From the NCBI GenBank assembly GCA_964406415.1, contig CAYORP010000218.1:1-31445 (forward strand): a DNA stretch of 31,445 bases, given 5' to 3'. Within the stretch, counting starts at the first letter, position 1. The number at the start of each line of letters is the position of its first letter. The DNA is from an uncultured bacterium. Lineage in GTDB: Bacteria; Ratteibacteria; UBA8468; B48-G9; JAFGKM01. The notes beneath the pieces were generated by a model that saw nothing but the letters and a program-made list of their open reading frames with translations, searched no databases and was not told where the DNA came from. Positions 1 to 18,270 of the stretch are shown one piece after another. A program made the translations under genes and the position numbers.

Positions 1-45
1 CTGAAAGGGGAGTGGAAAAGTGATACAATAGAGGAGGTTGACTAA
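1..45 (+). CDS. Probable 3' end of an upstream gene (partial; [14 protein letters not shown])
   Basis: Frame 1 is open from base 1 to TAA at 43-45, 1 nt before ATG 47. The AGGAGG SD for the next gene (32-37) lies inside it, matching the coupled layout of the rest of the operon. Confidence 0.45.
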
Positions 46-46
46 A

Positions 47-763: not shown

Positions 764-886
764 AAAGGAGGTGAATAAAATGAAAAAGAAAGTAAGAGAT
801 TGCTTCATAAAAAACTCTCGCAATGACAACAGAGGGTTCACTTTGATAGAGTTACTGGTGGTGATAGCGATAATTGCTATCCTTGC
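97..886 (+). repeat. 60-nt dispersed direct repeat (97-156 and 827-886) encoding the pilin N-terminal helix
   Basis: Hand alignment gives 54/60 identical nt, all differences synonymous. The rest of the two genes is divergent. Confidence 0.85.
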
Positions 887-1487
887 TGCTATGGTTTTAC
901 CTACCCTTGAAAGGGCAAGAACACAGGCAAAGATGGCAACCTGTATCAACAACCTAAAACAGATAGGACTTGCAACGCATATGTATCTTTTACAATATAA
1001 TGAATACTTTATGGGGCCGACGGTATGGGGATTAACAAGCACAAAGGGAACGAGAGATACTACCTTGCCACTCTATATCCTCTTACAGGAAGGATTTATA
1101 GAAGGGACTATGACATATGATGCTGGTAATGCTTTAAGAGGAGCGAGTGGAACGGTTGCTTGTCCATCAGTTAAAGGATATCAAAGAAGGACATACTATG
1201 TGGCTGATTATGGATATAATTACTATCTTGGGCTTACCGACCCTCCATTTTATAGAAAACTTTCAAAGGTGACAAAGCCATCAGGAACTCTTCTTTTTTA
1301 TGAAAGTATGTATGGATACAGACACTACAAACCAAGTATATGGGAGAATGCTCTCCTTCATGATGTTTATGGAAGACACCAGGAGGTTCCCATACTGAAT
1401 GCTTTGTTTGTTGACGGACACGCAAAAGGGCTCTCTTATGGCGAGTTTATGAGTGGTGGAACAACCACAGACAAACCGATTGAATAA
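780..1487 (+). CDS. Second type IV pilin-like DUF1559-type protein (H-X11-DG variant)
   Basis: NRG|[53 protein letters not shown] 780 is preferred over GTG 771 because AGGAGGT 766-772 is 7 nt upstream. Confidence 0.92.
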
Positions 1488-1519: not shown

Positions 1520-4500
1520 GTGACGAAAGTGGTGTTTCTTATTTTTTTGCTTTTCGCAGGGGCTTCCTTTCCTCAAACCAGAATAGTGATTGAAGCAGAA
1601 GATATGAAGGGAGTGGAGAGAAATTTACTCGGCCCAGGTAAAGACTGGCAGACTGGAGAATGGGGAAGGGTTCTCTATCAAAATATGACATTCGGAGGAG
1701 TATGGCAGAGTAGATTAAAGACCGTTATGACTGATGAAAAGGATAACTCCTCCGAAATATATTCTGACCTTGAAATCCCTGAGACAAAGAATTATAAGGT
1801 ATGGGTAAAGTATGAATGTCCGCCCTTCTACAACTATGCATTTGGTGTAAGAATAGTTGATGAGGGGAAAAAAGAGGTTCTTTTTGACAAAACCTATGGT
1901 CTTATAGAATCTCCAAAACACTTTTCATTCAAGAAAGATATTTTAAGAGGGAGTTTATACTGGACATGGGGGATAGACCACGATGCAGCAGAAGGATATG
2001 AGGTAGACCTGAAAAAAGGCATATACAGAATCTATATTTATAAGACAAAGAATCCACCTCCAGCAGGGCCAAGAAGTATTGATGTGGTCTTTATCACAGA
2101 CAGGATTACAGAACTCTCTTCTCCTGACTATCCAAGATATCCACTCCTTGATGAACTGAGGAAGACAAATAAAGCCTACTTCAGATTTTCAAATCCATCA
2201 GAATCGCCACTAAAACTGAGGTGGACCAGGTGGGCACACAGGTATCCTGATTTCTATTATCCTGCCACACCTAAAGAAATACTTTTTTATGACGAAGAAG
2301 GGGATGCAAAAGGGAAGGTAAAACTAAAGGATTTAATTGAGGTTGACGGTAAGAGTAAAACTCTCTGGTATAACTTTGGTCCGGTAATGAATGTTGAGAG
2401 TAATTCTGTCTTTTCATTTATGCCTGTTGAGAATATAGAGAAGGCAAAATTCAGGATTGAGGTCTCACTGAATAGAAAAGAGGTTATAAAGGAATTTGAG
2501 TTTCAGCCAGAAAAAGGAGAAAAAGAACTTTCCTTTGTGCTCCAACCAGACATCAATACAAAAGAGGGACAAATCTATTCAAAGAAGGTTATAGATATCT
2601 ACAGAGATATTACAAAGGAACTTGCAAGAGAAGAAAGAATAGGACCAATCCCAGAGAAATTAAAACTATTCGCCAGCACTGGGGGCGCATCCGTTCTGTA
2701 TAAAGGTGAGATACCATGGGATTTTGATGTTACTCAGGAATTCAGATATGCACTTGGACTTAATACAATACCCGGAAATACATTCAATAAAGGTTATATT
2801 GATAAGATGGTTGAATGGCGGGAAGATAGGAAGGCACCTCTAATCAAGAGGTCTCTTTCATACCACCATAACCAGAATATTAAAGATGTTGTAAAACGCC
2901 TTAATGATAAAAGACTAAATGACTATTTCCATTACCTGTCTTACGGAGATGAGATTGGACTTCCAAGAATAAACCCGGAAGATAAAGGAGTGGTTGATGA
3001 ATTTATAAATTTTCTAAAAGAAGAGGGTGTAACACCGCAGAAACTCGGACTTAAGGGGTGGGAAGATGTAAGACCGCTGAATTCTGTCTCTCCTGATGCC
3101 GCAGTAAAGATAGGTGTTGTATCAGAAGACGAGAAAGAAAGTGAAACAGCGGAAGTAAAGATGAAAAAATTGTACTGGTACACCCTGAGGTTCCAGGAGA
3201 AGAAGGGGATAGAGACATTTGCTGAAAAGACAAAAGAACTGAGAGAAAATCTGGGAAAAGAGGTAAACACAACCGCAAACCTTGGAGGTATGCATCCATT
3301 TTATTGGGTAAGCCAAACATCCTTTATAGAAAGTTTCAAGAAAAACGCTATGACAATTGCATGGAGTGAGCCCTACGCATGGGCAATGCCAGAGGCAAGT
3401 AACCTCGTGGTTGACTTTGAGGCATCCTACCTTAGAAAGGGGGCATCTTATCATAATACACCAATGATGTTCTACTGTATGCCCCACTTCCCGGGGAATA
3501 CCCCTGAAAATTTTCTGCAGACAGCAGTAATATTATGGATGAATAATGTCAAAGACCTTGAATTTTTCTGCGCAGGGCCGGATGCCTTCTTCACTGAAAA
3601 CTATATCTCTTATAGATACGGGATTGATATGTTTAAGATGATAAGGAAAATCTCAGGTATATCTGGCTTGATTGAAAAAGACATTCTTCCTGCAATGGTC
3701 AAGGAAACACCTGTTGCATTTCTTGTAAGCCAGGCATCTGATGTATGGGAAACTGCAGGGAAAGGACAGAGGGAGATTAAGCCAAACAGTGAAGGAACAA
3801 ACATTTTTCAAGAAGAACGAAAGTCTCTGTGGTATGCGCTGAGAAGGGCAGGATACAGGGTTGACATCCTGACTGAAAATGATGTTAAGGAAGGGATTGC
3901 AGATAGATACAGGGTTATATATTCAGCAGGTAGCAATACAGAAAGTAAAGCAGGAGAAAGACTGAAAAAGTGGGTGGAAAGAGGCGGAAGACTATTCTTG
4001 ACATCCGCCGCAGGCAGGAAAGATGAATTTGACCAGAGGTCAGGTATCATTGACGAAATCTCAGGGAGAGGGAAGCAAACTGATTTTAAACAGTATGCTG
4101 GACCACTGAGAGCAAAACTTGAACTTTTGTTTGAGGAAAAGATTGATGAAGTCTCTATCAAAGATGAATCAATGGATATATACTGCGTAAAGGAGAACTT
4201 CACTCCTTCACCTGACGTTACCATTATATCAAGGTATAAAGATGGTAAACCCTCTTTCATTAAAAAGAGATATGGCAAAGGGACGGTTTACTACTCTGGA
4301 TTTCTGCCCGGCATCACATATGTCAAAAAAGGGATGAGGCAACTACCTATGGGGAAAGGTGGTGGAGACCAGAGTTTTTGTCATTCAGCAGCCCACCACC
4401 TTGAAATTGAGAACCCAGACAAGATGGCTGAGAGTATAATTCTACTTCCACTTATTGAGAGCGGTATTAAACCAGATGTGTCTGCACAGGATGGGATAGT

Positions 4501-4723
4501 AACAGGTCGGCTTGAAAGCAGTCTATCAACAGTCATCCCGGTTGTAAACCTGAAGCAGAAAAGACTTGAAGATATAGAGATAGCGGTGAAGGATGTAAAG
4601 ATGTGCAGAGGTGTATGGTCTCCATTTTTCAAGAGAGGATTGAAATACAGAACTGTGGAAGGTGGGATAGTCGTTAGAGTCCCAGAGATTGGTTCTGCTG
4701 ATATCCTCATAATAAAAAAATAA
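1520..4723 (+). CDS. Secreted clan GH-A / GH42-like glycoside hydrolase, paralog A (N-terminal CBM-like domain, TIM barrel, GH42-type trimerisation/GATase-like domain)
   Basis: Hydrophobic signal peptide; IEAED-type beta-sandwich start; YGDE (E478) and AWSE (E617) candidate catalytic Glu pair; PVAFLVSQASDVW...RVDILTE...LKKWVERGG typical of the beta-galactosidase trimerisation domain. GTG start with GGGAG SD. Substrate not assignable. Confidence 0.75.
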   Translation: MTKVVFLIFLLFAGASFPQTRIVIEAEDMKGVERNLLGPGKDWQTGEWGRVLYQNMTFGGVWQSRLKTVMTDEKDNSSEIYSDLEIPETKNYKVWVKYECPPFYNYAFGVRIVDEGKKEVLFDKTYGLIESPKHFSFKKDILRGSLYWTWGIDHDAAEGYEVDLKKGIYRIYIYKTKNPPPAGPRSIDVVFITDRITELSSPDYPRYPLLDELRKTNKAYFRFSNPSESPLKLRWTRWAHRYPDFYYPATPKEILFYDEEGDAKGKVKLKDLIEVDGKSKTLWYNFGPVMNVESNSVFSFMPVENIEKAKFRIEVSLNRKEVIKEFEFQPEKGEKELSFVLQPDINTKEGQIYSKKVIDIYRDITKELAREERIGPIPEKLKLFASTGGASVLYKGEIPWDFDVTQEFRYALGLNTIPGNTFNKGYIDKMVEWREDRKAPLIKRSLSYHHNQNIKDVVKRLNDKRLNDYFHYLSYGDEIGLPRINPEDKGVVDEFINFLKEEGVTPQKLGLKGWEDVRPLNSVSPDAAVKIGVVSEDEKESETAEVKMKKLYWYTLRFQEKKGIETFAEKTKELRENLGKEVNTTANLGGMHPFYWVSQTSFIESFKKNAMTIAWSEPYAWAMPEASNLVVDFEASYLRKGASYHNTPMMFYCMPHFPGNTPENFLQTAVILWMNNVKDLEFFCAGPDAFFTENYISYRYGIDMFKMIRKISGISGLIEKDILPAMVKETPVAFLVSQASDVWETAGKGQREIKPNSEGTNIFQEERKSLWYALRRAGYRVDILTENDVKEGIADRYRVIYSAGSNTESKAGERLKKWVERGGRLFLTSAAGRKDEFDQRSGIIDEISGRGKQTDFKQYAGPLRAKLELLFEEKIDEVSIKDESMDIYCVKENFTPSPDVTIISRYKDGKPSFIKKRYGKGTVYYSGFLPGITYVKKGMRQLPMGKGGGDQSFCHSAAHHLEIENPDKMAESIILLPLIESGIKPDVSAQDGIVTGRLESSLSTVIPVVNLKQKRLEDIEIAVKDVKMCRGVWSPFFKRGLKYRTVEGGIVVRVPEIGSADILIIKK

Positions 4724-4734
4724 AAGGGGGGATT

Positions 4735-7700
4735 ATGGGTTTAAAAATTATTCTTTTGCTTTTTCCTTTCATCTTTTCCGGTCTATCTTTTTCATTTGAG
4801 ATTCCTATGCAGGCAGAAGACTTTAGTCTTGTCTCTGGATGGGAGGTGAACGACTATGGATATTTTCCATCACAGCCTAACTTCTGGTCATTAACAAAGA
4901 TAATAGCAGACCAGTCAGACACACCGGCATCTGCCTATAAGGACTTTGAGGTACCTGAGACAAAGGAATATATTGTCTGGGTAAGATATGAAAGTTGTTA
5001 TGGTTTTGGTTCTGTCTTTAAGGTTTCAGTTGAACAGGATAAAGAGAAACAGGAGGCGGTCTTCGGCAGAAAGGGAGATAGCAAATACTTCCCATTCGGA
5101 AGGGGATATACAGTTCAGGGGCCCTGGCAGTGGCATAACACAGACTATGTATATCAGGGAGGAAGATTTAAACTAAAAAAGGGTAAAGCGAGAATCTATA
5201 TAACGAAGGATACAAATGAAAGACCATCCGCAAAAAGGGTGGTTGACCTTGTTTATATAACAGATGACCTAAACCTAAGACCTGGAAATGACTGGGCATG
5301 GAGGGGAAAGACTGAGCCACCTATTATATCAAGGTTTACCTTACCTGTTTACATAAGGGTTAAGGTTCTTGAAGGGAAGGAACCAATACTTTTGAGTTGT
5401 AAGTACAAGTGGTGGCTGGTTGGCCATGTCAAAGGGCAGATAAAAGACTATTATTTTTCAAAAAAGGGGGTATCTGAAGATATCCCTTCTGTTGAAGACA
5501 GGCTGGAAAAAGGCGATGAGACTGACTGGCAGGAGATAAAGATTAAGCCGACTATGTCACCTGTGTTTATCTTTTCTACAGGAGGGAATAGCAGGGTAAG
5601 GATTGAGGTTGCTGTAAAGGATAAGAAGAATATTGTAAAAAGGCTTTATCTTGAGCCTGAAAAACCAGAAACCTATCTTTTTGTTGGTATCGGGCAGAGG
5701 AAGTTTGAAGAAGGAATTCTCGGGAATGAAAAGGCACTTACATTTGAGGAGTTTTTCAATAGACAGATTCGGTTACTTGATAACTATAAAATTAAAGGAA
5801 AACCTGCAAAAAAACTTTTCCTATGTGGTGCTATAAGAGAGTTTCCATACCTGACCTTCAAACTGGCAAAGGCATGTGGGATTAATGCAGAGTTTTATCA
5901 GTGCCATCCTGAGATATACAGCAAGAACCCTGAATGGAAAGGGTTTAATACATCCACTGGATTTATAACCGTGCAAAACAGACATCTGAATAGAGAGTGT
6001 TATGAAGGGAATTTTGAAAAACTTGAAGCCTCCTACAAAAAAGTGGCAGGAGAATTGAAGAGCAAACTTGGAAGAGAACTGCCGCAGTGGATAAAACTTA
6101 TAGAGGAGAGTGGACCTCCACCACTCACAACGTTAAGAAAATGGGACAAGATAAACGAAGGGTTTAAGAGATATATGGAGAAGAACAACCTTAAGGGATA
6201 TACTCAAATTGGAACCGGCTCTTCTCAAGAGGCAAGACAAGACCCTGTGCTTTTTTATCACTCACACAGATTTAGAGAGATGCTTTTTACGGATGTATGC
6301 AGGGAAGCAACAGGACTGATAGAGAAAACCTTCCCAGAAGGAAGCAGAGCCCATTCTGGAAGTATCAACATATCAGTAGGAGAGGAATACGCCATTGGAA
6401 GAGGGGAAGAGGTCTATGACTTTTTCAAAAGAAGAGGCGTAACAGGATACTCAACTGAGATGTCCTGGGGCCTGGGTGGAATGCCAAACTATATAGGTCC
6501 CCAAACCCATTCATATGAGGGAGCAATAGGGAGGTCGCTTTCAAAATACTACAATGTCCCTATGGGCGCCTATCTCATAAGTGATGGCAACAGAGGATAT
6601 ACAGGTGAGTTTGTTGAACTTGCAAGTTACCCACTCTATGCCAATGGATTTGTCTTTCTTGACTATTACGACTTCGGGTATCCAAGTGGATGTAGCACAA
6701 TAGGTTATCCTGATATCCTCAAGGCAATCAAGAAAGTAAGTTATACAATGGGTGAGGTTGAAGACAGCCTGCTTGATGGAGAGGTTATAAAATCAGATAT
6801 TGCATTAGGTTATTCTGAAACCACCAATATATGGGACCTGTCCATTGAGATGGAAGACAAAAGGTTGCCTGGCAATGCAATATATCCGCAGGAGAGGCAG
6901 AATTTTTATTATATCCTGAGACACCTTCAGTATCCTGTGGATATTCTTTCAGAGGGTGATATCATTGATGGATACATTGATAGATACAAGGTCTTTATCT
7001 TAATTGGAGACCACATCCAGAAGGACGCTGGAGAAAAACTTGCAGAGTGGGTGAAAGATGGTGGATATCTGATATCAGTTGCTGGTGGCGGATTTTATGA
7101 CGAATACAACAGAGAGATAAAGACTATGAAAGATATCTTTGGTATTGAAGGTGCTCAGATTGAAAAGAAAAACCATTTTATGAGGCCGAAACTTGACCTT
7201 CTTTATGCAGAACCTGTTGATAAGATAGAGTTTGAAGAAGGGATATCTCCCATTGACATCTTTGCCTACAGACAGAGTTTTAAGATTAATGGAGGGAAGG
7301 CCCTCGGATACTTCAAAAACGGAGATGCAGGCGCTGTCGTGAACAGATATGGAAAAGGTAGAGCACTGATAATTGGAGGACTTCCCGGAATTAGTTACCT
7401 GAAAGGAACATTCCCCTTATTGCCCTATGGCAGAGGAGGAGATAACGAACTTTCAGGATATATGCCCAAGAAGTTTAATGATAATGTCCGAGAGGTAATT
7501 GGCTACTTTCTGAAAAGTGCTGAAAAACCTGTGATATGTTCAAACCACCTTGTTGAACCTATTCTGATGAAGAGTAAAAGCCAGAAAGAGACCTATTATA
7601 TTTCTCTCATAAACTTTTCTGGCAGAGAAATAAAAAATCTTGAAGTAAAACTTAACCTCGGTAAGATTGAAAACGTAAAAAGTCCATTCTCAAATATCAG

Positions 7701-7776
7701 ATTCAAAAACAACATAGTTATAATACCTGAAATGGAAAGGTTCAACTTTTTGGTCTTAAAAGGAGGGGCAGAATGA
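4735..7776 (+). CDS. Secreted clan GH-A / GH42-like glycoside hydrolase, paralog B
   Basis: Signal peptide; MQAED CBM-like domain; LIEE (E458) and YSTE (E575); IALGYSETTNIW...PVDILSE...LAEWVKDGG. Closest to paralog A (shared QxER, LRxKLxLL and GRGG/GKGG motifs). Confidence 0.75.
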   Translation: MGLKIILLLFPFIFSGLSFSFEIPMQAEDFSLVSGWEVNDYGYFPSQPNFWSLTKIIADQSDTPASAYKDFEVPETKEYIVWVRYESCYGFGSVFKVSVEQDKEKQEAVFGRKGDSKYFPFGRGYTVQGPWQWHNTDYVYQGGRFKLKKGKARIYITKDTNERPSAKRVVDLVYITDDLNLRPGNDWAWRGKTEPPIISRFTLPVYIRVKVLEGKEPILLSCKYKWWLVGHVKGQIKDYYFSKKGVSEDIPSVEDRLEKGDETDWQEIKIKPTMSPVFIFSTGGNSRVRIEVAVKDKKNIVKRLYLEPEKPETYLFVGIGQRKFEEGILGNEKALTFEEFFNRQIRLLDNYKIKGKPAKKLFLCGAIREFPYLTFKLAKACGINAEFYQCHPEIYSKNPEWKGFNTSTGFITVQNRHLNRECYEGNFEKLEASYKKVAGELKSKLGRELPQWIKLIEESGPPPLTTLRKWDKINEGFKRYMEKNNLKGYTQIGTGSSQEARQDPVLFYHSHRFREMLFTDVCREATGLIEKTFPEGSRAHSGSINISVGEEYAIGRGEEVYDFFKRRGVTGYSTEMSWGLGGMPNYIGPQTHSYEGAIGRSLSKYYNVPMGAYLISDGNRGYTGEFVELASYPLYANGFVFLDYYDFGYPSGCSTIGYPDILKAIKKVSYTMGEVEDSLLDGEVIKSDIALGYSETTNIWDLSIEMEDKRLPGNAIYPQERQNFYYILRHLQYPVDILSEGDIIDGYIDRYKVFILIGDHIQKDAGEKLAEWVKDGGYLISVAGGGFYDEYNREIKTMKDIFGIEGAQIEKKNHFMRPKLDLLYAEPVDKIEFEEGISPIDIFAYRQSFKINGGKALGYFKNGDAGAVVNRYGKGRALIIGGLPGISYLKGTFPLLPYGRGGDNELSGYMPKKFNDNVREVIGYFLKSAEKPVICSNHLVEPILMKSKSQKETYYISLINFSGREIKNLEVKLNLGKIENVKSPFSNIRFKNNIVIIPEMERFNFLVLKGGAE

Positions 7777-9056
7777 AAAAGGTCTTATTTCTTCTGGCTG
7801 CGTTGGTCTTTTTTGGTAATCTCTTGAAGGCAGAGGTGCTGAAGGATGCAGTAACTGACAAGAATGAGATAAAAGGAGGAGAAGAGATTGTAAAGATAGA
7901 AGCGACAGTCTCTCAACCGGTAGATGTAAGGGTGAGTGTCTGGAAGGATGATAAGATTATAAGGGTTATTGACAACCTGATACCTGCTCAGATTAAGTAT
8001 TCTACTGTCTGGAATGGAAAAGACCAGAAGGGAGATACAGTAAAACCTGGAAAGTACACAATAAAGGTAGAATCCGATGAGGAGATTATCCTTGATAAAA
8101 CCTTTGGAGAAAATGGAGTAATTGCTGATTTTGTTTCTCCCTTTACCCTAAAGGTTGCCCCTGATGGAAGCATATGGATTATTGACAGGGCAGAGCACTT
8201 CCTATGCAAGTATGACAAGAACGGAAAGGCAAAGAACGACTTTGATGGGGAAAATAGATTAAAGATTGGAAATGCATATAATTTAGATTTTGACAAGGAT
8301 GGATTTATCTACATTTCAAGTGGTGGCCATCAGATGTACAAGATGGACCAGAAGGGGAACATCCTGATGAAATATGGTGGACATAAGGTCGTAAAAGATG
8401 AAAAAGGTAAAGGACATTATCCACCAGAAGGGACCACATGGGGACAGGTCGTTGGAGTTGGGCCAGAAAATAAACTCTACATATGGGCGTTTGGTGGTAT
8501 AGATGCTTATAACAAAGGCTTCCCAGACTTTGGCGGTTTTCTTTACACCATCAGCGGAGTTCTTCCTGCTCATCCTAAAACAACCGGTTACATAGGACCC
8601 TCCGGGATTTCAAATGAACAGACCGGTGAGATTTACTGGCTATGGCATACAGGATGGCTCAGCAAGATGATAGACACAGGCAAGGAGTTAAAAGATGCAT
8701 ATAGATATCCGGGGAATAGGGTTTTTGCATCACCCACAGGTGTGGGAACAAACTGGCTCGGAGAGGTTTATGTTGCAAACTGGGGAAAGAATAGGATTGA
8801 AAAAATCTTTGATACAGGAGGAGCCCTGAACTGGATAAAAAGTATTGGTTCCCCCGGTAAAAATATTGAAAACAGGGAATTCTTTGGGATACATGACGTT
8901 TGGGTTGACGGAGACAACATTTATGTGGTTGAGGATGGAGAAAGAATATACAACTATGAGGCACAAAAGGAATACGACACACCTGGAAATCACAGAGTAA
9001 GTAAGTGGATAAAAAAATTCAAAGAGTCAAAAGAGATAGAGGTAACTGTAAAATGA
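7773..9056 (+). CDS. Secreted FlgD Ig-like domain + NHL-repeat beta-propeller protein
   Basis: Signal peptide; VWNGKDQKGDTVKPGKYTIKV (FlgD Ig-like); NHL-like repeats (SPFTLKVAPDGSIWIID, SPTGVGTNWLGEVYVAN, GIHDVWVDGDNIYVVE). ATGA overlap with the upstream gene. Confidence 0.78.
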   Translation: MKKVLFLLAALVFFGNLLKAEVLKDAVTDKNEIKGGEEIVKIEATVSQPVDVRVSVWKDDKIIRVIDNLIPAQIKYSTVWNGKDQKGDTVKPGKYTIKVESDEEIILDKTFGENGVIADFVSPFTLKVAPDGSIWIIDRAEHFLCKYDKNGKAKNDFDGENRLKIGNAYNLDFDKDGFIYISSGGHQMYKMDQKGNILMKYGGHKVVKDEKGKGHYPPEGTTWGQVVGVGPENKLYIWAFGGIDAYNKGFPDFGGFLYTISGVLPAHPKTTGYIGPSGISNEQTGEIYWLWHTGWLSKMIDTGKELKDAYRYPGNRVFASPTGVGTNWLGEVYVANWGKNRIEKIFDTGGALNWIKSIGSPGKNIENREFFGIHDVWVDGDNIYVVEDGERIYNYEAQKEYDTPGNHRVSKWIKKFKESKEIEVTVK

Positions 9057-9943
9057 AAAAGATACCTTTTGTATGGTCAAATGATGATATATCTTTCGGA
9101 CAATCTGATAAATTTAAAAGGCAGATTGAGTTTCTTGATAATCTGGAGATAAAGGGCAGTTTTTTTGTCGTTCCAAGAAGGGTGGCAAATGGAGAAGAGG
9201 TTATACAGGAGAACGGCAAGATGACACTTGACAGAGACAGCCAACTTTTAGACCTGATTGAAGATGCCAGGAAAAAGGGACATAGATTTTATCAGCATGG
9301 GTGGGTCCATACCCCTTACGAGTGCGGGATACCCGACCTTGAAATGCTTGACTTTTCAGGAGAGGTTAAAAAGCAGTTTTCAACAAGAAGGTTTGAGATT
9401 GAGCAGTCAATAAAACTGGAGGTCATTGTAGAAAAGATTGAACTTGGAAGAAAGGTATGGAGAAAAGCATTCGGAGAAGACTCCCCGGGTTTCCGTCCTG
9501 GCTGGGGAGCATATTGTTCTGACTACTACAAGGCACTTGAAATACTTGGTTTTAGGTGGAGTTCAGCAAGAATATACCTGTGGACCTCATGGGTATGGGG
9601 ACAGGGCATATTTGAGTTTAAAGAGGGGTTCAGAGAAGGGATAACCCCTTATCCACATAAAATTGGTAGAATAATTGAGATTCCCATCGGAGGCGACTAT
9701 GGTTTTAAAGTTAAAGAGCAAGATATTAACAGGTTCTTTAACCTTGCAGTAGAGGAGTTTAATCTGTGCTGGAGTAATGGCTATCCCTTTGTATTTGTTT
9801 CACACTGGCATGGACTTGAAAGAGACGGAACAAACACTGGATATAAGGTGCATCAAAAATTTATCACATATATTATTGAAAGCGAAAGGGCGGATTTTAT
9901 GACTGTGGAAGAACTTTATGAAAAGTATAGAGATAGAAAGTAA
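9053..9943 (+). CDS. Polysaccharide deacetylase-like protein (CE4/NodB superfamily, DUF2334-like), no signal peptide
   Basis: WSNDD, YQHGWVH, FRPGW and SHWH metal-binding/catalytic motifs. Start moved from the track's 9005 to ATG 9053, which forms an ATGA overlap with the upstream stop. Confidence 0.8.
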   Translation: MKKIPFVWSNDDISFGQSDKFKRQIEFLDNLEIKGSFFVVPRRVANGEEVIQENGKMTLDRDSQLLDLIEDARKKGHRFYQHGWVHTPYECGIPDLEMLDFSGEVKKQFSTRRFEIEQSIKLEVIVEKIELGRKVWRKAFGEDSPGFRPGWGAYCSDYYKALEILGFRWSSARIYLWTSWVWGQGIFEFKEGFREGITPYPHKIGRIIEIPIGGDYGFKVKEQDINRFFNLAVEEFNLCWSNGYPFVFVSHWHGLERDGTNTGYKVHQKFITYIIESERADFMTVEELYEKYRDRK

Positions 9944-9950
9944 ATCCTCA

Positions 9951-9979
9951 TTGAATGTCATAGATGGACCCTTTATAGT
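9951..9979 (+). promoter_or_regulatory. Candidate internal sigma70-type promoter upstream of the GH20 gene
   Basis: TTGAAT (9951-9956), 17 bp, TATAGT (9974-9979), in the only gap of about 100 bp in the operon. Confidence 0.55.
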
Positions 9980-10045
9980 ACTGACAAGAAAGACGCAGGC
10001 TAAAACCAACAGATGAAAAACGAGTCGGTTATCTGAATACTTCCG

Positions 10046-11761
10046 ATGGAAATTTACAAGATAGAGTCGAACAGGATAAGGATTGAGGTTGATAAAAAAG
10101 GTGATATAGTCAATCTGCTTGATAAAAAAGAAAAGATAAACTTTGTTAAAAAGAAAAATGTCTTTAGTAAAGGCGGGCTCCAGATATGGGTGAAGGAGGG
10201 AAGACTTGGTAGGGATGCGGGGGGGACTCTTTCCCATAAGTTTTCAGACATAACATTCAAAACCCCTACCATAAAGATTAAAGATTCCAATATATATATT
10301 GAGAAGAGAGAAAAAGAAGAGGTATTGAAGACATCTTATGATATAAATGATGAAGGAGTTGCAATCTTTGTCTCCCTCAAAAACAAAGGAAAGCCAAAAC
10401 TTCAACAGTTTGAGTTCTTTTTTAGCTGGGAACTACCTGCCAGGACAAATATCCTAATCCCTGTCGGAAATAGATATACAAATTATATTATCCCACCTTT
10501 CGGAAGGGTTGTAACAGAAAGGTTCAGGTTTTCCCCTGAGCCTGTTTATCTCATATTTGAAAATGGGAGCGGCCTAAAGATTGAGTTTTCACAACTTGGA
10601 ACATATGTAATATATAACAGAGGAAAGATGTGCGTCATAGGTGGCTACACAGATGCAAAACTGGTAAAAAAAGAGAGAAAACTGGAAGAGACTATAAAGA
10701 TAATGCCATATAAGAAGAAGATTTACACCCATCCGAGAGAAGAAAAGTTTGTCTTTCCTGAGGTTTCAGAGAACCCATGGTTTCAAAAAAGGCTGATACA
10801 TCTCTCACTTTATTATCAACGGGTTGACCTCCAATCTCTGTTTTTTGTTTTGAGAAACCTGAAAAAGATTGGATACAACGGAGTGGTTCTTGGGATTGGC
10901 AAAGGGATGAGGTATGAGAGTTATCCTCAGGTAAGTGAAGAATGGTCTTATACGAAAGCAGAAGTTATGGAGATAAAGAGGAGTCTTGAAGAGATGGGGA
11001 TGGAGATTATACCTGAGTTCCCCACACTGGGACATCAAAACGATACAAACCTTGCAAGGGTTGACCCATCCCTCGTTGAGGACCCTGAAAATCCATCAGT
11101 CTACTGCACCTCCAATCCCAAGACATATACGGTTATCTTTTCACTTCTTGAAGAAATAATAGAGATATTCAGACCAGGCTTTTTCCATCTTACACACGAT
11201 GAGGTTCAACACTGGTTCAGCAAAAGAAAGATGGGGATTTGTGAAAGGTGTAAAGACAAAAAACTATGGGAGATTTATTCAGAGGATGTGAACAAACTGC
11301 ATGAATTCTTGGATAGTAAAGGGATAAGGATGACCTTATGGGGAGATATGCTTCTTGACCACAGGAGATTCAAGATTTGTAACTGCAATGGAGCAGCAGG
11401 AAATATATACAAATCTATTGACCTTATCTCAAAAGATATACTTGTTTTTGACTGGCACTATCATTATTATAGAAGTTATCCATCACTTGACTATTTCAGA
11501 GATAAAGGTTTTGATGTCTTTCCTGCAATGAGTTTTTTTAGACCAGAGGCGGTTGCCTCCTTCACAAGGTATTCTAAAAAAACAGGGATAAGAGGAGGGG
11601 CGATTGAAACAACATGGGCTGTGCCGGTTGTTGAGGAACTGCCCCTTGAGAATATCTTCATTGCCTCACAACTCTTTCAGAACCCAAACCATAATATCAA
11701 AAAACTGAAAAAACAGGCATATCAATTCGCAATGCACATCTATGAGGAGGCTAAAAAATGA
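10046..11761 (+). CDS. GH20-family beta-N-acetylhexosaminidase-like protein with N-terminal beta-sandwich domain, no signal peptide
   Basis: IIPEFPTLGH, FFHLTHDE (catalytic DE pair, nt 11198-11203), WGDML, FDWHY, ETTW. No clear SD, so the exact start is uncertain. Confidence 0.82.
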   Translation: MEIYKIESNRIRIEVDKKGDIVNLLDKKEKINFVKKKNVFSKGGLQIWVKEGRLGRDAGGTLSHKFSDITFKTPTIKIKDSNIYIEKREKEEVLKTSYDINDEGVAIFVSLKNKGKPKLQQFEFFFSWELPARTNILIPVGNRYTNYIIPPFGRVVTERFRFSPEPVYLIFENGSGLKIEFSQLGTYVIYNRGKMCVIGGYTDAKLVKKERKLEETIKIMPYKKKIYTHPREEKFVFPEVSENPWFQKRLIHLSLYYQRVDLQSLFFVLRNLKKIGYNGVVLGIGKGMRYESYPQVSEEWSYTKAEVMEIKRSLEEMGMEIIPEFPTLGHQNDTNLARVDPSLVEDPENPSVYCTSNPKTYTVIFSLLEEIIEIFRPGFFHLTHDEVQHWFSKRKMGICERCKDKKLWEIYSEDVNKLHEFLDSKGIRMTLWGDMLLDHRRFKICNCNGAAGNIYKSIDLISKDILVFDWHYHYYRSYPSLDYFRDKGFDVFPAMSFFRPEAVASFTRYSKKTGIRGGAIETTWAVPVVEELPLENIFIASQLFQNPNHNIKKLKKQAYQFAMHIYEEAKK

Positions 11762-14745
11762 AAAAGGCAATTATGTTTTTCTTCATATTCAGTATCCTTT
11801 TATTTTCAAACAATGAGAACCCATTACTTGAAAAAGAAATCTTCCCTCTATCAAACCCCTCATTTGAAGAAAACCTGAAGGACTGGGGAGGAAACCCAAA
11901 AGACAACTATATGTTAATGTACACCTACGGAAACATCCCCTGCAAGATTGCCGAGGATGGATATGATGGTAAAAAGTCATTATATATGGAACTGAACAGG
12001 GATGGCGCTTCGTATCTATATAGAAGTTTTAAACTTAAAGTTGGGAAAAAGTATTATGTCAGTGCAAAGATTAAGACTGAAGGGAATATCTATGGAAGTG
12101 TAAGGGTTGTCTATGGAGCCAGTGGGGAACCTTCTTCTTCCTTGGTTTCGCCTGACAGCAAATGGGAGGAGGCGGGGGTGAGTTTTACCGGCACAAAGAA
12201 AGGACAACCTAAAGATGCTGACCCCTCTGATGCCTATTGCGAGATAAGACTGCAAGCCAGCGGCAAAGGGAAGATTTACTATGATGATATAAGAATCCAA
12301 GAATTGAAGGAGTATCAGCCATACTTAAGGGTAAAACTTCTGTCAGGCGAAGGGAAATACAGGATTAAGATATATTCAAAGGTTGGACCACCTAAGTGGT
12401 TTTTCTCAAAAGTCTTTTTTGCAAAAGAGGGGTTGCAGATTGGAGAGTTCTCACCATGGATAAATCTGGGAGAATTTGAAGAATTTAAGGGAAGAGGTAT
12501 TGCCTATACAGGGGTGATATTTGAAGGTCTCAGTAGTAAGAAGTTGGATGAGATAAAGGCTGAGATTGATTTTGCCTATATGCCCGATGAAAAAACAATA
12601 TTGAAGAGGTTTGTAAGGCAGGTGAAGGGCAACATAATAGGTATCTTTATACCCAAAGGTGAAAATACCCCGACATATTTTGTTGAGAATGTAAAACTTC
12701 TGAAGGATAATGCTGAAGAGAGAAACAGATTTGTCAGGTCTCTTAATCTACCATTTGTTGAACTGAAGCACTACTTTGTTGAAGCACATCTGAAAGGATA
12801 TGGCTCTTTCTTCTCTGACCCCGAGATAGTAGAAAAAGAGGTCAACACATTACGAACCATTGGGTTTAATGCCATTGATTCCCAGTATTCAGGACTTGCC
12901 ACAGTTTACAGGGAGACAGCAGAAAAAGAAGGGATATTTCAAACACATCATACAATGAGAAGGTTTAACCTGCCTTTTGATAAAGAGACAAAAACATTTG
13001 TCTTTGATATCAACAAGATAAAAGAAAACATTGAGGTTGAAGTGAATGACTGGGTTGAAAGACTAAAAAAGGATGACCCCAAACAAACAGTACCTATAAA
13101 ATTTGTGGACATTGGAGATGAGATAGCAGGTTCTGTCTTCGGCGGGCAGGGTTATGAAGATGGTTATAAAAGATATCTAAAAGAACACAGGGTCAAACCA
13201 TCTGAATTAGGACTTAAAGACTGGGATGAGGTAAAGACATATGGAACATGGAACTGGAGAGAGGCAAGGGGGAAAAGACCAGAAAATAGAAAAGACCTAA
13301 GTGCTTGCAGAAGTTATTACTGGACACTGAGATACTGGAATTATGCAAATTCAGAGGTTTACAGGATAATGACTGAAACACTTGAAAAACACCTTCCAGG
13401 TATAACAACGAGGGTTAATTTCGGTCCACCATGGCTATATGAATACTGTTCATATCTGAGAGGAGCAGAGATATGGGAGTTTGCAAGAAACAGAAGTGTA
13501 TCATCAATGTGGAATGAGGACTGGCTTAATACCTATGGATGGAGAGGGGGTGGTGGAATTCAGATGTGTGCCTTTCTTGTTGACCTCAGCAGGAGTTGTG
13601 CCCAAACCCGTGGACTTGAAACAGATGCCTATGTGATGCCTGAAGGGAAAGAAAATATACAACTAAAACTTGCATCCGTGATAGGGAAAGGTGCCAAGAA
13701 GATGGGTATCTACAGATACGGGCCTGCATATGCTTCTCCTGACAGTTGGTCAGAGAACAGCAGTATGGTTGAAGGGGTATCCACCTTTTTGAGAAAACTT
13801 GGAAAGACCGAAGATGTTTTATTCCCTGGAAAACCACCAAAATCTGATGTTGCTATTGTCTGGTCACAAAGCAATGATATATGGAGAGATACAAATGACA
13901 GTATTACAGACAGAACCCTTATATACCTTGCACTTCTTCACAGGCAGGTCCCGGTTGACTTCATAGATGAAAAAGGGATAGAGGAAGGGAAACTTAAAGA
14001 CTACAGGGTTGTCTATCTTGCTTCAGAGTATCTTAAAAGGGATGCTCAGGAAAGGATTGAGGAATGGGTGAGAGGTGGTGGATATTTATGGGTTGATGGA
14101 CTTGGAGGTACAGGTGATGAATATGGACAGAAAACAGATATCCTGCTTCCAGTCTACGGTATAAAGGTTAAAGATGTAGTAAAAAGGGAAGACAAAAAGT
14201 TAGAGCAACCACTTGGAAAGATTATTATTGGAGATTCTGATATTGAAACAACCAGTATAAGGGTCAACTTTTCTTTAATTCAGCCATCAGAGACAGAGAT
14301 AATTGGTAGATATGAAGATGGTCAGCCTGCGATAATTGAACATAGATATAAAAAGGGAAAGGTATTCTATGTTCCAACATATGCAGGGCTGGTTTATTCA
14401 ACACCTGTTGTGAGAATACGAGGGAAGATAGAGACCGGATACAGAGAAAGAGAGAGGAAGATAATAACTGACCTTGCCCTGAAAGATGGAATAAAAAGAC
14501 CGGTTGAATGCAGTGTTGATTGTGTTGAGGTTGATTTACTTGAAAGTGAGAAAGGGACGGGACTGGTGCTTGCTAACTATACAGGTGAGTCTCAAAAAGA
14601 GATAAAGATTAGGGTCAAAACAGACAAAAAGATAAGGTCAGTCTATTCAGCAACAACAGACAAGACAGTACAGTTCAAAAGCGACACAGGATATGTAGAA
14701 TTTAATATTCCACTTGAAATTGTTGACCTTATAACACTGAGATAG
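11758..14745 (+). CDS. Secreted clan GH-A / GH42-like glycoside hydrolase, paralog C (N-terminal CBM4/9-like domain)
   Basis: Signal-like N-terminus; LSNPSFEE...IYYDDIRI (CBM4/9-like); IGDE (E455) and MWNE (E587); VAIVWSQSNDIW...PVDFIDE...IEEWVRGGG trimerisation domain. ATGA overlap, GAGGAGG SD. Confidence 0.77.
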   Translation: MKKAIMFFFIFSILLFSNNENPLLEKEIFPLSNPSFEENLKDWGGNPKDNYMLMYTYGNIPCKIAEDGYDGKKSLYMELNRDGASYLYRSFKLKVGKKYYVSAKIKTEGNIYGSVRVVYGASGEPSSSLVSPDSKWEEAGVSFTGTKKGQPKDADPSDAYCEIRLQASGKGKIYYDDIRIQELKEYQPYLRVKLLSGEGKYRIKIYSKVGPPKWFFSKVFFAKEGLQIGEFSPWINLGEFEEFKGRGIAYTGVIFEGLSSKKLDEIKAEIDFAYMPDEKTILKRFVRQVKGNIIGIFIPKGENTPTYFVENVKLLKDNAEERNRFVRSLNLPFVELKHYFVEAHLKGYGSFFSDPEIVEKEVNTLRTIGFNAIDSQYSGLATVYRETAEKEGIFQTHHTMRRFNLPFDKETKTFVFDINKIKENIEVEVNDWVERLKKDDPKQTVPIKFVDIGDEIAGSVFGGQGYEDGYKRYLKEHRVKPSELGLKDWDEVKTYGTWNWREARGKRPENRKDLSACRSYYWTLRYWNYANSEVYRIMTETLEKHLPGITTRVNFGPPWLYEYCSYLRGAEIWEFARNRSVSSMWNEDWLNTYGWRGGGGIQMCAFLVDLSRSCAQTRGLETDAYVMPEGKENIQLKLASVIGKGAKKMGIYRYGPAYASPDSWSENSSMVEGVSTFLRKLGKTEDVLFPGKPPKSDVAIVWSQSNDIWRDTNDSITDRTLIYLALLHRQVPVDFIDEKGIEEGKLKDYRVVYLASEYLKRDAQERIEEWVRGGGYLWVDGLGGTGDEYGQKTDILLPVYGIKVKDVVKREDKKLEQPLGKIIIGDSDIETTSIRVNFSLIQPSETEIIGRYEDGQPAIIEHRYKKGKVFYVPTYAGLVYSTPVVRIRGKIETGYRERERKIITDLALKDGIKRPVECSVDCVEVDLLESEKGTGLVLANYTGESQKEIKIRVKTDKKIRSVYSATTDKTVQFKSDTGYVEFNIPLEIVDLITLR

Positions 14746-14753
14746 GGGGGGAT

Positions 14754-17219
14754 ATGAGAAGAACTATCTTGTTGTTGGTTCTGTTTCCTTTGCTGCTTTT
14801 TGGAGAGGACAACTGGTACTTAAGATATAAACCTATAAGTGATTTTAAAGATGGGGTCTATGCAGATGTAGGAGGGATAGCACATCAGTCACCATGGTTC
14901 CCAAACTTTGGTTCTCTTCCGCTTTCAGGAAAAGGTTATCCCTGGAGATGGACAAAAACAGACAGTTATTCACCATGGTTAAAGATAGAGAAAAAACAAC
15001 TTTCAAAAAGACTCCCTGCAACAATAATACTTTCCTTCCATTCAAAAGATGAGGTTAAAAATATAAAGGTGGAGATAGAGGTTTCAGAGAACAAGACTGA
15101 TATTCTGACCTCAAGAGAGATAACCGGTGATGGTAACCTCATTTCTTTTCTTCTACCACCCGACCTGAAAAAGGGTGATAGAATAGTTACTGTCCCTGAA
15201 AAGATAGATGAGTATTATAAACTCTCAAGAGAGATTTTCCCTGATACCTCTCCTGACCTGAAAAATTTCATTATGGCAACGGGGGTTTGCGGATATAGAA
15301 GGCTCTTTAGTTCTCCAGACCTTTTAATGAAACAGTATAAGACTATCAGACACTATGGTATAAATTCAACAGGATGGATTAATGAAAAATGGGGAGAGGC
15401 AGGATTCAGGTATACACGCCTTGTCGGTGGGACTCCCTATGGGAAGATATGGCAGCCTGACTTTGATAGACTTGTAAAAGAAGGGGTGGAAAACCTTTGC
15501 AAAAGATATAAAGAAAATCTGCAGATACAGGATAAGGTATATTCAGTTGTTCTTGCTGATGAACCAGGCCTTTTAAGACTGAAAGAGGAAGATGAAAATA
15601 TTCAGAAGGCATTCAGAGAATATCTCAGAGAAAGAGGTCTTAACCCGTCTGACTTTGGACTTTCAAAATGGGAAGAGGTAAAACCGGCCTTTTCAAGGAA
15701 CAAATTTGCAGAGATAGAACGTCTTTATACAGAGAGAGAGGTAAAAGCCGCCAAAAAACTGTATTTCCACAGCAAAAAGTTCCAGAGTTTCAGCACTCTC
15801 TATGCATTTAAGAAACCGACAGAGATAATTTCAGAATACCTACCAGATAAAGCAAAGACATACATAAATTTCACTCCCCATCCAATGATTGGAGGAGGTA
15901 TGCTTTCAAGCAACTCCCCTGACTGGATTGAAGCAGGAAGAATACATGCAACAACAATGCCATGGTCTGAAGACTGGCTTGGAAGCAGTGGATGGGTTGC
16001 AATGAGCCTTGAATATACGGGATTTATAGCGGATATACTCAGAGGTGCGGCGAGGTATCATAATGACCCCGTAGGATTCTACATAATCCCTTCAGGTAAT
16101 TTCCCTACACTCCAAAAGTCATTCTCAGTTCTCGGCAGGGGGATAAAGATAATTGATTTCTTTGACTATGGTCCCCTGATATGCTCAACAGAGAACCACT
16201 TTTCAGATAATCATGAAAGCCTCAAAGGAGTAGGAATGTTTACAAGACTCATCTCAAAGATAGATGATGACTTCCCTGATGCAAGACTTATTACAAATCC
16301 TGTCGCAATCCTATGGTCAACATCAAGTGAGATATGGAAGGATGACAATGTCTCTCACACAGAGAATATGATGCTATGGCTTGCTCTTGATAGAAACCAG
16401 ATTATCCCTGATTTCATTGAAGAAGAAGATATAGAAGGTGAAGATATCTCAAACTATAAAGTGATTTATGCCACAGGTAAAAACATTACAGAGAAGGCAA
16501 CTGAAAAACTACTCGGGTGGGTTAAAAACGGAGGGGTTCTATGGTTGGAGGCAGGGTTTGGAATGTATAACGAGTATAACAGAGATAACAGTCGCCTCCG
16601 TGAGATCACAGGATTTCTACCAGAAAACCTTATCAAAAAAGACGCAGATAGATTTAACTGGAGAAGTTTAGCATCTCCACCTGTGATAGATAGTGTGAGT
16701 GGTAACGGACTTCAAGAGGTCCCCACAATTGCTTATAAACAGAAGATAGAGACAACAAAGGGCATCGTTGCAGCCTTTTCAGATAATACGCCCGCACTCG
16801 TTGAAAAGGAATATGGGAAAGGGACAATCTTCATCTCCTGTTTTATGCCGGGGCTATCCTATGGCTCAACAACAAACAAGTGGGAGAATAAAAATTTTGC
16901 TACATCTTTTAACGAAAAGATATTTGAGTGGCTGTATATACCTATCGCAAAGTCAGGTTATAAAAAGCAGGTCACTGTCAGTAAACCAGGTGTGCAGACA
17001 ACCATTCTAAAGAGTCCTGAAAAAACATACGTTGTGCTTGTGAATTATTGTAAGGACACTGAAAAAGGGGAGATTGATAACCTTGCGGTTGGTATACCGG
17101 GGATTAAAAACTATAAAAGGATATGGACTGTTCAGGATAAAAAGTTGAACATCTCCAAAAAGAATGGAGTTGAGATTGTATTACCACTTGATACCGCAGA
17201 TGTTATAGTTATAGAGTGA
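14754..17219 (+). CDS. Secreted clan GH-A / GH42-like glycoside hydrolase, paralog D (no N-terminal CBM)
   Basis: Signal peptide; LADE (E270) and PWSE (E406); VAILWSTSSEIW...PDFIEE...LLGWVKNGG trimerisation domain. Confidence 0.77.
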   Translation: MRRTILLLVLFPLLLFGEDNWYLRYKPISDFKDGVYADVGGIAHQSPWFPNFGSLPLSGKGYPWRWTKTDSYSPWLKIEKKQLSKRLPATIILSFHSKDEVKNIKVEIEVSENKTDILTSREITGDGNLISFLLPPDLKKGDRIVTVPEKIDEYYKLSREIFPDTSPDLKNFIMATGVCGYRRLFSSPDLLMKQYKTIRHYGINSTGWINEKWGEAGFRYTRLVGGTPYGKIWQPDFDRLVKEGVENLCKRYKENLQIQDKVYSVVLADEPGLLRLKEEDENIQKAFREYLRERGLNPSDFGLSKWEEVKPAFSRNKFAEIERLYTEREVKAAKKLYFHSKKFQSFSTLYAFKKPTEIISEYLPDKAKTYINFTPHPMIGGGMLSSNSPDWIEAGRIHATTMPWSEDWLGSSGWVAMSLEYTGFIADILRGAARYHNDPVGFYIIPSGNFPTLQKSFSVLGRGIKIIDFFDYGPLICSTENHFSDNHESLKGVGMFTRLISKIDDDFPDARLITNPVAILWSTSSEIWKDDNVSHTENMMLWLALDRNQIIPDFIEEEDIEGEDISNYKVIYATGKNITEKATEKLLGWVKNGGVLWLEAGFGMYNEYNRDNSRLREITGFLPENLIKKDADRFNWRSLASPPVIDSVSGNGLQEVPTIAYKQKIETTKGIVAAFSDNTPALVEKEYGKGTIFISCFMPGLSYGSTTNKWENKNFATSFNEKIFEWLYIPIAKSGYKKQVTVSKPGVQTTILKSPEKTYVVLVNYCKDTEKGEIDNLAVGIPGIKNYKRIWTVQDKKLNISKKNGVEIVLPLDTADVIVIE

Positions 17220-17226
17220 GTCATAA

Positions 17227-18270
17227 TCATATATTCAGGATATTTTTGATAACTGGAAATAGACCTTCCGCCATCCTCATAAACCCAAGGTCGGTAGGAT
17301 GAACACCATCAACAGTGCATTCATAGAAGTCTTTACCGAGTAGTTCGTATCCATCCTTAAAGTACATATTTTTATCACCTCCACTTCTTAATTTCTTAAC
17401 AAGTTCAATCGTAAATTTCTTCCTGTCTCTCTGTGCCTTCTTAACCTCTGCATCAAAAATTTCAGCAGAATAAGGAATGTGGGAAATTACAAGTATAGGT
17501 ATTTTGGGCTGCGCCTTTCTTAAAATCCTTATAAATTGTGGCAGAGTTTTCCTGTAATACTTAAGCCCCCCGGAGTTTCCTTCATAATCAAGGATATACA
17601 AGACTGGAAAGCCAATCTGTGTTATAATCCTTGCCATTTCAGGTTCGCCTCTTCCACTCCCGGAAAATCCGAGGTTTATAAACTCAATCCCCAGCCACCT
17701 GCTCAGAATATTTGTATACGCCATCCCAGGTCGTGACGCGCATCCGCCCTGTGTAATAGAGGTCCCATAAACGATAATCTTCCCGGCTACTCTGAAGATT
17801 TCCGGCGGCAGGATACTGCTTCCCTCTTCAAGCCCAATAGATACCTTTTTAACTCCATTATAAAGAGGAAAATTCAGTGTGACATCTCTCAGTCTTCTCT
17901 TTTTATCTTTAAATTCAAAGAAGGTAAACTCGTACATTCTTCTTGAAACTGGGAAAAACTTTGTCGTTTTCAGATACCTGTAGTTCCCAAAACTACCGAT
18001 ATAACAGTCAAAACCACTCTGCCCTGTTGCTGGCATATAGGGAATATCTGACTTCCCAGAAAGTAGAACCTTTATTCTTAAAAGATTAGAATCAGTTTTA
18101 AACCTTATTTGAGAACCGGCAGTGCAATCCGCAAGTTTATCCACAACCTCTGAGACTCTATAAGACGGTTTTACAAGCAGTCTTCTATAGACCCTTTCCT
18201 TTTCAAACCATGCAAGCCCGCATATCTCAAAAACACCTTCCTTAGGGTTATGCCATATCAATCTTTTCAT
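17227..18270 (-). CDS. SGNH/GDSL esterase with N-terminal GxDLY-type domain
   Basis: SGFDCY (GxDLY-like), YGTSITQG (catalytic Ser block), GFSG, DYEGN, DGVHPTDLG (intact D-x-x-H). AGAGGAG SD on the minus strand. Confidence 0.9.
   Translation of the reverse strand: MKRLIWHNPKEGVFEICGLAWFEKERVYRRLLVKPSYRVSEVVDKLADCTAGSQIRFKTDSNLLRIKVLLSGKSDIPYMPATGQSGFDCYIGSFGNYRYLKTTKFFPVSRRMYEFTFFEFKDKKRRLRDVTLNFPLYNGVKKVSIGLEEGSSILPPEIFRVAGKIIVYGTSITQGGCASRPGMAYTNILSRWLGIEFINLGFSGSGRGEPEMARIITQIGFPVLYILDYEGNSGGLKYYRKTLPQFIRILRKAQPKIPILVISHIPYSAEIFDAEVKKAQRDRKKFTIELVKKLRSGGDKNMYFKDGYELLGKDFYECTVDGVHPTDLGFMRMAEGLFPVIKNILNI

Follow-up and report, generated by a model that had tools for sequence, protein, structure and literature searches.

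The 31,445-nucleotide (nt) contig CAYORP010000218.1 from the genome assembly of an uncultured Ratteibacteria bacterium (GCA_964406415.1), the whole of which is referred to here as the window, contains four large genes on its forward strand, designated paralogs A (1067 amino acids (aa); 1520..4723), B (1013 aa; 4735..7776), C (995 aa; 11758..14745) and D (821 aa; 14754..17219). Based on sequence comparison, all four paralogs belong to a single large family of predicted, so far uncharacterised glycosidases, within which they diverged long ago; the family is remotely homologous to glycoside hydrolase family 42 (GH42) of clan GH-A. It may well represent a new enzyme family with amino or N-acetyl-amino sugars as substrates. 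Tentatively, it may be new at the level of a CAZy family, built on a GH42/clan GH-A scaffold that has lost its β7 nucleophile and works either through substrate assistance or through a nucleophile on β6, with up to 18 paralogs in genomes of ~2 Mb labelled Omnitrophica at NCBI.

Relatedness and domain architecture of the paralogs

The four proteins are 21–26% identical to one another, and their paralogy is far above chance (C against D, E 4e-62; C against B and C against A, ~1e-26). Each begins with a hydrophobic, signal-peptide-like N-terminus and contains the Pfam GH42M trimerisation domain (PF08532), which scores above the gathering cut-off in A, B and C; the match in D is below threshold, at 20.5 bits against a cut-off of 25.8. 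In A, N-terminal β-sandwich modules are followed by a barrel at approximately aa 379–724 (nt 2654–3691), GH42M at aa 754–935 (nt 3779–4324) and a C-terminal sandwich; in B the barrel spans approximately aa 359–681 (nt 5809–6777) and GH42M aa 708–882 (nt 6856–7380). C features a CBM4/9-like sandwich and a second sandwich within aa 24–300, then the barrel at aa 335–690 (nt 12760–13827), GH42M at aa 697–874 (nt 13846–14379) and a C-terminal sandwich. D has a short N-terminal part, a barrel at approximately aa 170–509 (nt 15261–16280) and GH42M at aa 519–696 (nt 16308–16841). The initial annotation had described four paralogous open reading frames (ORFs) with a common barrel and trimerisation layout; the ORFs are present, and the layout is borne out by the E-values between the paralogs, the Pfam GH42M matches and the structural models of B and C described below.

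The N-terminal regions differ between the paralogs. A β-sandwich module opening with I-x-A-E-D is common to A and B (window positions 1580–2500 and 4800–5700); in B-type orthologs it is strongly conserved, and many of its Trp, Tyr and Gly residues are invariant. The N-terminus of C is instead CBM4_9-like, and matches the carbohydrate-binding module (CBM) of a hyaluronate lyase (4D0Q, E 1.4e-4).

Fold models and the sequence relationship to GH42

AlphaFold2 (AF2) models were obtained for C from 30 homologs, with a predicted local distance difference test score (pLDDT) of 90.9 and a predicted template modelling score (pTM) of 0.87, and for B from 34 orthologs (pLDDT 91.5; pTM 0.91). Both models display a clean eight-strand barrel joined to the GH42M domain and a C-terminal sandwich; residues 335–995 of C and 359–1010 of B match the complete three-domain architecture of GH42. 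When compared by VIA-align, the models match the GH164 enzyme Bs164 at Z 24.7 (C) and 25.9 (B) and GH42 at Z 24–25, over ~560–575 residues in both cases; other matched folds are the GH35 transglycosylase IaSGT (Z ~22), the archaeal enzyme GlmA (Z 20–22), a GH151 fucosidase (Z 18.7 for C and 19.4 for B) and GH167 (~17). Identity in these fold matches is 12–16% throughout, and judged on the predicted models the fold alone singles out no family for B and C.

Sequence profiles reach GH42 and no other family. A full-length profile of the C family finds Gan42B (GH42) in the PDB at E 8.9e-12, and a barrel-only profile of 78 diverse members finds 3TTS at E 5.9e-8 and 1KWG at 1.9e-4; single-sequence PDB searches with A and C return no match. 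The Pfam model of the GH42 catalytic domain (PF02449) matches only D of the four paralogs, at 14.1 bits and E 0.031 (below the cut-off of 21), and 11 of the 78 barrel segments, all weakly (best E 1.4e-4). Searches of Pfam, NCBIfam and PDB sequences assign no family to the barrel; Pfam and NCBIfam recognise the GH42M domain only. The models of B and C and the profile matches together identify the family as a remote homolog of clan GH-A. The unclassified status of the family in Pfam, NCBIfam and the PDB, and its derivation from GH42-like clan GH-A enzymes, are supported by these comparisons; they agree with the proposal of the initial annotation that an unclassified GH42-like family is present, as the PDB holds no sequence relative nearer than remote GH42.

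A further point of contact with GH42 is the motif F/Y-x2-F/Y-L...P-x2-[LF]-G-L-x2-W-x-[ED]-V, found at residues 495–517 of A, 470–492 of C and 287–309 of D. This motif corresponds to F-R-x-W-L...L-N-x-x-W in the helical insertion that follows β4 in GH42. It had been noticed previously as common to the three paralogs, which is correct; the spacing between its L and P is six residues, not five as then given.

The catalytic centre

In the model of C, strands β1 to β4 of the barrel lie at residues 340–344, 372–374, 396–399 and 447–451, followed by a helical subdomain at 464–545 and by β5 (550–552), β6 (583–585), β7 (624–626) and β8 (648–651); the model of B is analogous, with β4 at 451–454 followed by E457-E458 and β6 at 571–574 followed by E575. 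Profile alignments put the family sequence lgDEiG on VSNEYG of 3TTS and TDNEYG of 1KWG; because D-E thereby falls on the GH42 N-E motif, the β4 Glu (A E478, B E458, C E455, D E270) is shown by sequence to be the homolog of the GH42 acid/base. GH42 has Asn immediately before this Glu; A, C and D have Asp there, and B has Glu. These residue pairs are encoded at 2948..2953 (A D477-E478), 6103..6108 (B E457-E458, a variant that is invariant in 34 B-type orthologs), 13117..13122 (C D454-E455) and 15558..15563 (D D269-E270), all on the + strand. For a time B seemed to lack the motif, as a MAFFT alignment of the four paralogs and an hhalign comparison of the B and C profiles had misplaced E457-E458; this was overturned by an alignment of 129 family members and by the B model, in which E457-E458 occupies positions +3/+4 after β4, the same as D454-E455 in C.

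The second conserved acidic motif follows β6 and comprises W615-S616-E617 in A (3362..3370, +), E575 in B (6457..6459, +), W585-N586-E587-D588 in C (13510..13521, +) and W404-S405-E406-D407 in D (15963..15974, +). At the end of β7, the site of the nucleophile Glu of GH42 and GlmA, C has P628 (13639..13641, +); the sequence LLME of Gan42B, which includes the nucleophile E323, aligns with YVMP of the family, and the nucleophile position is taken by Pro in A, C and D but by Ser in B. HMMER instead placed the family sequence YVMPH..PGNTP on the post-β7 loop NWAPHNPSP of GH42; this was rejected as a strand assignment because both AF2 models have β7 at Y-V-M and the spacing to α7/β8 agrees. A conserved acid after β7 was sought in the 129 members and none was found, and the canonical β7 nucleophile is shown to be absent from A–D. 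With the second Glu on β6 and Pro or Ser at the β7 site, the two residues are therefore not the canonical acid/base and nucleophile pair of clan GH-A. All of the residues named in the initial annotation (GD-E478 and WS-E617 of A, IE-E458 and ST-E575 of B, GD-E455 and WN-E587 of C, AD-E270 and WS-E406 of D) are found at those numbers, and its claims that an acidic residue takes the place of the N-E Asn and that E458 is the corresponding residue of B hold; of the Glu pair that it placed after β4 and β7, the first does follow β4 and the second follows β6 in both models.

Conservation was counted in the same 129-member alignment. The β4 Glu position is E in 121/122 sequences and is preceded by D in 107, by E in 13 and by N in 2; among the 119 members with D/E-E the β6 Glu is kept in 112 and missing in seven. 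The signature of the family is hhhh[GAM]-D-E-[IP] at β4 (E-E in the B-type), N at β5, W-[SNT]-E-D-[WY] at β6 and h-Y-h-M-P at β7. The classical N-E is found in two members only, P0158 and P0168, which are without the β6 Glu and have H-E or H-D after β7; N-E with a β7 acid thus covaries against D-E with a β6 Glu, and the changes therefore appear to go together. Both sequences are metagenomic relatives, and may have retained the ancestral configuration of GH-A.

Proposed mechanism and alternatives

A characterised enzyme with the same replacement exists in archaeal GlmA, a glucosaminidase of GH35 in which Asp-Glu stands where Asn-Glu is otherwise conserved; the protonated C2 amine of glucosamine (GlcN) is bound by Asp178 and the D178N variant is inactive, E179 and E347 form the β4/β7 pair, and E306 contacts the anomeric O1 and adds to activity (PMC6566704). 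The distance from E179 to E306 is 127 residues, compared to 132 from E455 to E587 in C, and that from E306 to E347 is 41 residues, the same as from E587 to P628. From these matching spacings, which are the only basis of the comparison, the family is inferred to be similar to a GlmA that has lost its nucleophile. The substrate-assisted families GH20 and GH123, and three related new families described by Sumida et al., are also characterised by consecutive D-E on a TIM barrel, with no nucleophile supplied by the enzyme (bioRxiv 10.1101/2023.07.28.550916).

By analogy with these enzymes, the mechanism favoured here, though held with less than even confidence, is substrate-assisted cleavage of a linkage of a β-linked N-acetylhexosamine (HexNAc). 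The predicted enzymes would cleave β-linked sugars with nitrogen at C2, a nitrogen-bearing sugar being a reasonable guess at the substrate. The β4 Glu (E455 in C) would serve as general acid/base, and the preceding Asp or Glu would engage the C2 nitrogen, as do Asp178 of GlmA and the Asp of the D-E motif in GH20 and GH123; in C, D454 would polarise the acetamido group. As the enzyme offers no nucleophile under C1, the N-acetyl group of the substrate would take over, passing through an oxazolinium intermediate, with P628 of C freeing the space under C1; the β6 Glu and Asp (E587 and D588 in C) and the flanking Trp residues are predicted to hold the sugar. Each paralog would most likely form its own homo-oligomer and act on a different linkage of one complex glycan, proposed to be acetylated and to contain HexNAc and rhamnose; the GH20-like protein, CE4 deacetylase, GH106-like protein and SGNH esterase of the operon may act alongside A–D. 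Counted in favour of this mechanism are the C-type genes beside or near a GH20-like gene, and the presence of the CE4 deacetylase and SGNH esterase in the block. Several points weigh against it. According to the authors of the GlmA study, the Asp and an acetamido group would collide, an argument that applies with the β7 Glu present (PMC6566704); the acid/base of the B-type is preceded by Glu in place of Asp, an uncommon arrangement among substrate-assisted families; conservation of the β6 Glu nearly equals that of the β4 pair, which fits a true catalytic role as well; the GH20-like enzyme of the operon could make a second HexNAc-ase redundant; and at the other loci inspected, family members are found without a linked CE4 gene.

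The main rival to substrate assistance, considered somewhat unlikely, is a double-displacement retaining β-glycosidase in which the β4 Glu remains the acid/base, the β6 Glu (E587 in C) has become the nucleophile and the Asp or Glu before the acid/base binds a protonated C2 amine; such an enzyme would be a GlmA-like exo-β-glucosaminidase or galactosaminidase acting on a glycan deacetylated by the CE4 enzyme. The retention of the β6 Glu in 112 of the 119 D/E-E members is consistent with this, as are the presence of the CE4 deacetylase in the operon and the covariation of N-E/β7 acid against D-E/β6 Glu, which fits a swap; in GH42 the β6 position is a Tyr that touches the nucleophile. No clan GH-A family is known, however, to use a β6 nucleophile, seven members have D/E-E without the β6 Glu, and CE4 is unlinked to the family in other genomes. 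The spacing of the β6 Glu matches that of GlmA E306, which contacts the anomeric O1 (PMC6566704); yet O1 is on the leaving-group side and not on the face attacked by a nucleophile, and the equivalence of E587 and E306 is drawn from spacing only. An α-glycosidase layout, as in GH151, GH29 and clan GH-D, with the β4 Asp or Glu as nucleophile and the β6 Glu as acid/base (for instance an α-fucosidase, α-galactosidase or α-GalNAc-ase), is improbable. The GH151 α-L-fucosidase ALfuk2 is an α-retaining enzyme with a β4 nucleophile, D154, and a β6 acid/base, E235 (PMC10154630). It shares the architecture of the family and is among the fold matches; the GH66 dextranases, also matched (Z 15–17), likewise use β4 and β6 residues. 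The sequence homology of the family is to GH42, with D-E falling on N-E, and not to GH151, no GH151-type Pfam match is found at E<=1, and the fold scores for GH42 and GH164 are 5–6 Z units above those for GH151. A GH151-like layout is less likely because it is the β4 Glu, the homolog of the GH42 acid/base, that is invariant (121/122), whereas the Asp varies (D 107, E 13, N 2), as a nucleophile should not.

Other chemistries are also unlikely when taken together: an inverting hydrolase with the β4 Glu as acid and the β6 Glu or Asp as base, acting through a water in the β7 space; a transglycosylase; or non-catalytic glycan binding. Loss of the nucleophile does open space for a water, the β6 Glu is missing in seven members, and the transglycosylase IaSGT (GH35) is among the top fold matches; against these stand the strong conservation of both acidic motifs in 129 diverged members, which argues for catalysis, and secretion, which argues against phosphorylase chemistry. 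All known relatives in clan GH-A are retaining enzymes.

Distribution and gene linkage

When A was used as the query against 1.84 billion cluster representatives, 967 of these matched at E<=1e-3 and 110 at E<=1e-30; the named matches are metagenome-assembled genomes (MAGs) labelled Omnitrophica or Ratteibacteria, in which the proteins are annotated only as 'trimerization domain-containing' or hypothetical. The barrel is present in 20 of 65 species genomes of the phylum, with 1 to 18 copies per carrier genome. It is found in 0/8 other genomes of the genus to which the window belongs and in 12/12 genomes (G004–G015) of one genus in a sister family, where 2–18 copies are present per ~2-Mb genome; therefore, the four genes of the window may have been acquired by horizontal transfer. 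Genomes of the sister-family genus contain orthologs of A (52% identity), B (48%) and C (50–51%) at separate loci, mostly alone. In GCA_023818965.1 a lone C-type gene lies between a BNR_2 gene and a GDSL esterase gene, and in GCA_023819585.1, an Omnitrophica-labelled MAG, the gene order is pilin, B, GH20-like, C, GH106, unknown, FlgD_ig and D; linkage of C-type, GH20-like and pilin genes is found in four genomes besides the window.

The window set is a lineage-specific clustering of independent enzymes. The initial annotation had raised the possibility that the four paralogs join into one hetero-oligomeric enzyme through their GH42M domains, and this idea is weakened to the point of being very improbable. 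The oligomerisation domain is present in all four proteins, their genes are co-transcribed to judge from spacing, and B, C and D types occur together in one other MAG, GCA_023819585.1; the cluster in that MAG, however, is seen without an A-type gene, A-, B- and C-type orthologs stand alone at separate loci in several genomes, which is evidence against an obligate hetero-oligomer, and copies per genome vary from 1 to 18. The known GH42 and GH164 enzymes are homotrimers.

The genome that contains the window has more distant relatives on another contig (C134), where two adjacent genes encode GH42M proteins of 1054 aa (L010:4476-7640) and 1243 aa (L010:7618-11349), the latter with Laminin_G_3 and CBM4_9 modules. 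The putative β4 motif of this pair, GVH-L/S-D-E-V/I-Q, has D-E too and resembles H-D-E-V-Q of the GH20-like protein of the window; the pair adjoins a DegT aminotransferase, DUF3604 proteins and a ceramidase-like gene.

The gene block of the window

Paralogs A–D lie within a co-directional, tightly packed gene block in which intergenic gaps are 8–32 nt and ATGA start/stop overlaps occur at 7773, 9053 and 11758; this spacing is operon-like. A terminator and promoter scan of the block found terminator-like sites to be no commoner than in shuffled sequence, and nothing above chance. Two pilin-like proteins with N_methyl and DUF1559 domains (38..1487, +) are first in the operon, preceding A and B. 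B is followed by an FlgD_ig/NHL-repeat protein (7773..9056, +), whose start overlaps the B stop codon in an ATGA, and by a CE4/DUF2334-type polysaccharide deacetylase (9005..9943, +). As listed, the deacetylase ORF overlaps the preceding gene by 52 nt (9005–9056); the ATG at 9053 is its likelier start because it overlaps the stop of that gene in an ATGA. The GH20-like protein (10046..11761, +) retains an H-x-x-H-D-E catalytic-type motif and has no obvious N-terminal signal peptide, unlike A–D; its stop overlaps the start of C in an ATGA. Downstream of C and D, a convergent gene for an SGNH/GxDLY esterase (17227..18270, −) ends the block. Runs of six or seven G residues lie directly 5' of the start codons of B and D (4720–4737 and 14740–14757), and resemble ribosome-binding sites of unusual G-richness.

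Implications

If the enzymes are substrate-assisted, they would be the first HexNAc-ases with a GH42 fold. The family offers a natural example of nucleophile loss in a retaining GH-A enzyme. GlmA appears to be a plausible intermediate state, because D-E, the β6 Glu and the β7 Glu coexist there. The residues to be mutated are clear in C, namely D454, E455, E587, D588 and P628. The Omnitrophica lineage is usually regarded as ultra-small and host-dependent; that small genomes hold 10–18 copies suggests that these uncultured bacteria live by degrading glycans, a lifestyle so far unrecognised, and the family, if its proposed function is true, would be the main glycan-degrading toolkit of the lineage. 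This large metagenomic family is currently annotated only as 'beta-galactosidase trimerization domain-containing protein', and may yield new specificities for glycans of amino or N-acetyl-amino sugars.

Comparison with known enzymes

GH42 (3TTS, 4OIF, 5E9A, 1KWG) comprises β-galactosidases and α-L-arabinopyranosidases of clan GH-A, and is the only family detectable by sequence. A–D share with it the three-domain architecture, the helical insertion after β4 with its F-x2-[FYW]-L motif, and the acid/base Glu; unlike GH42, they have Asp or Glu in place of Asn, Pro or Ser in place of the β7 Glu, a new W-x-E-D motif on β6, and extra N-terminal sandwich modules and signal peptides, and identity is 12–16%. 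GH148 (EngU), considered because of its similarity to GH42, was rejected as it features canonical N-E and T-E motifs (PMC5725463).

GH164 provides the best or tied-best fold match for B and C in the β-mannosidase Bs164 (PDB 6T5O), where the barrel, trimerisation domain and sandwich assemble into a doughnut-shaped trimer (PMC7105311); its sequence match to the family is not significant (barrel profile, E 0.36), and it has a canonical β4/β7 Glu pair, E160 and E297, of which the β7 Glu is absent here. The GH151 enzyme ALfuk2 (PDB 6TVK) resembles the family in combining a barrel, a GH42M-type middle domain and a sandwich, and in that its catalytic residues, Asp on β4 and Glu on β6, lie on the two strands that hold the acidic motifs of the family (PMC10154630); the two differ in that the invariant β4 residue of the family is a Glu homologous to the GH42 acid/base, and no sequence match of the family to 6TVK is found. 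GH20 and GH123 are similar in their TIM barrel, in the consecutive Asp-Glu after β4 (Glu-Glu in the B-type) and in the absence of an enzyme nucleophile. They lack GH42M, whereas A–D have GH42M and no DUF4091; neither family has a sequence or top-ranking fold relationship to A–D, and a Pfam scan of A–D at E<=1 shows no PF00728 or GH123 domain.

GlmA displays the same three-domain fold and the same Asp-Glu replacement, and differs in keeping the β7 nucleophile (E347) where A–D have Pro or Ser; GlmA is archaeal and the family bacterial and secreted. The likeness to this characterised enzyme is at the level of the fold only (Z 20–22), with no strong sequence match. The NCBIfam model of the GlmA type, NF041127, scores 27.5 bits against a cut-off of 1500 and covers the GH42M-like middle domain only; in searches with this model the matches in the window's own genome are likewise to the middle domain only, and no control genome is above the cut-off. 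GlmA is a characterised precedent for replacement of the Asn; the novelty of the family lies in combining that replacement with the lost β7 nucleophile and the conserved W-x-E-D motif on β6.

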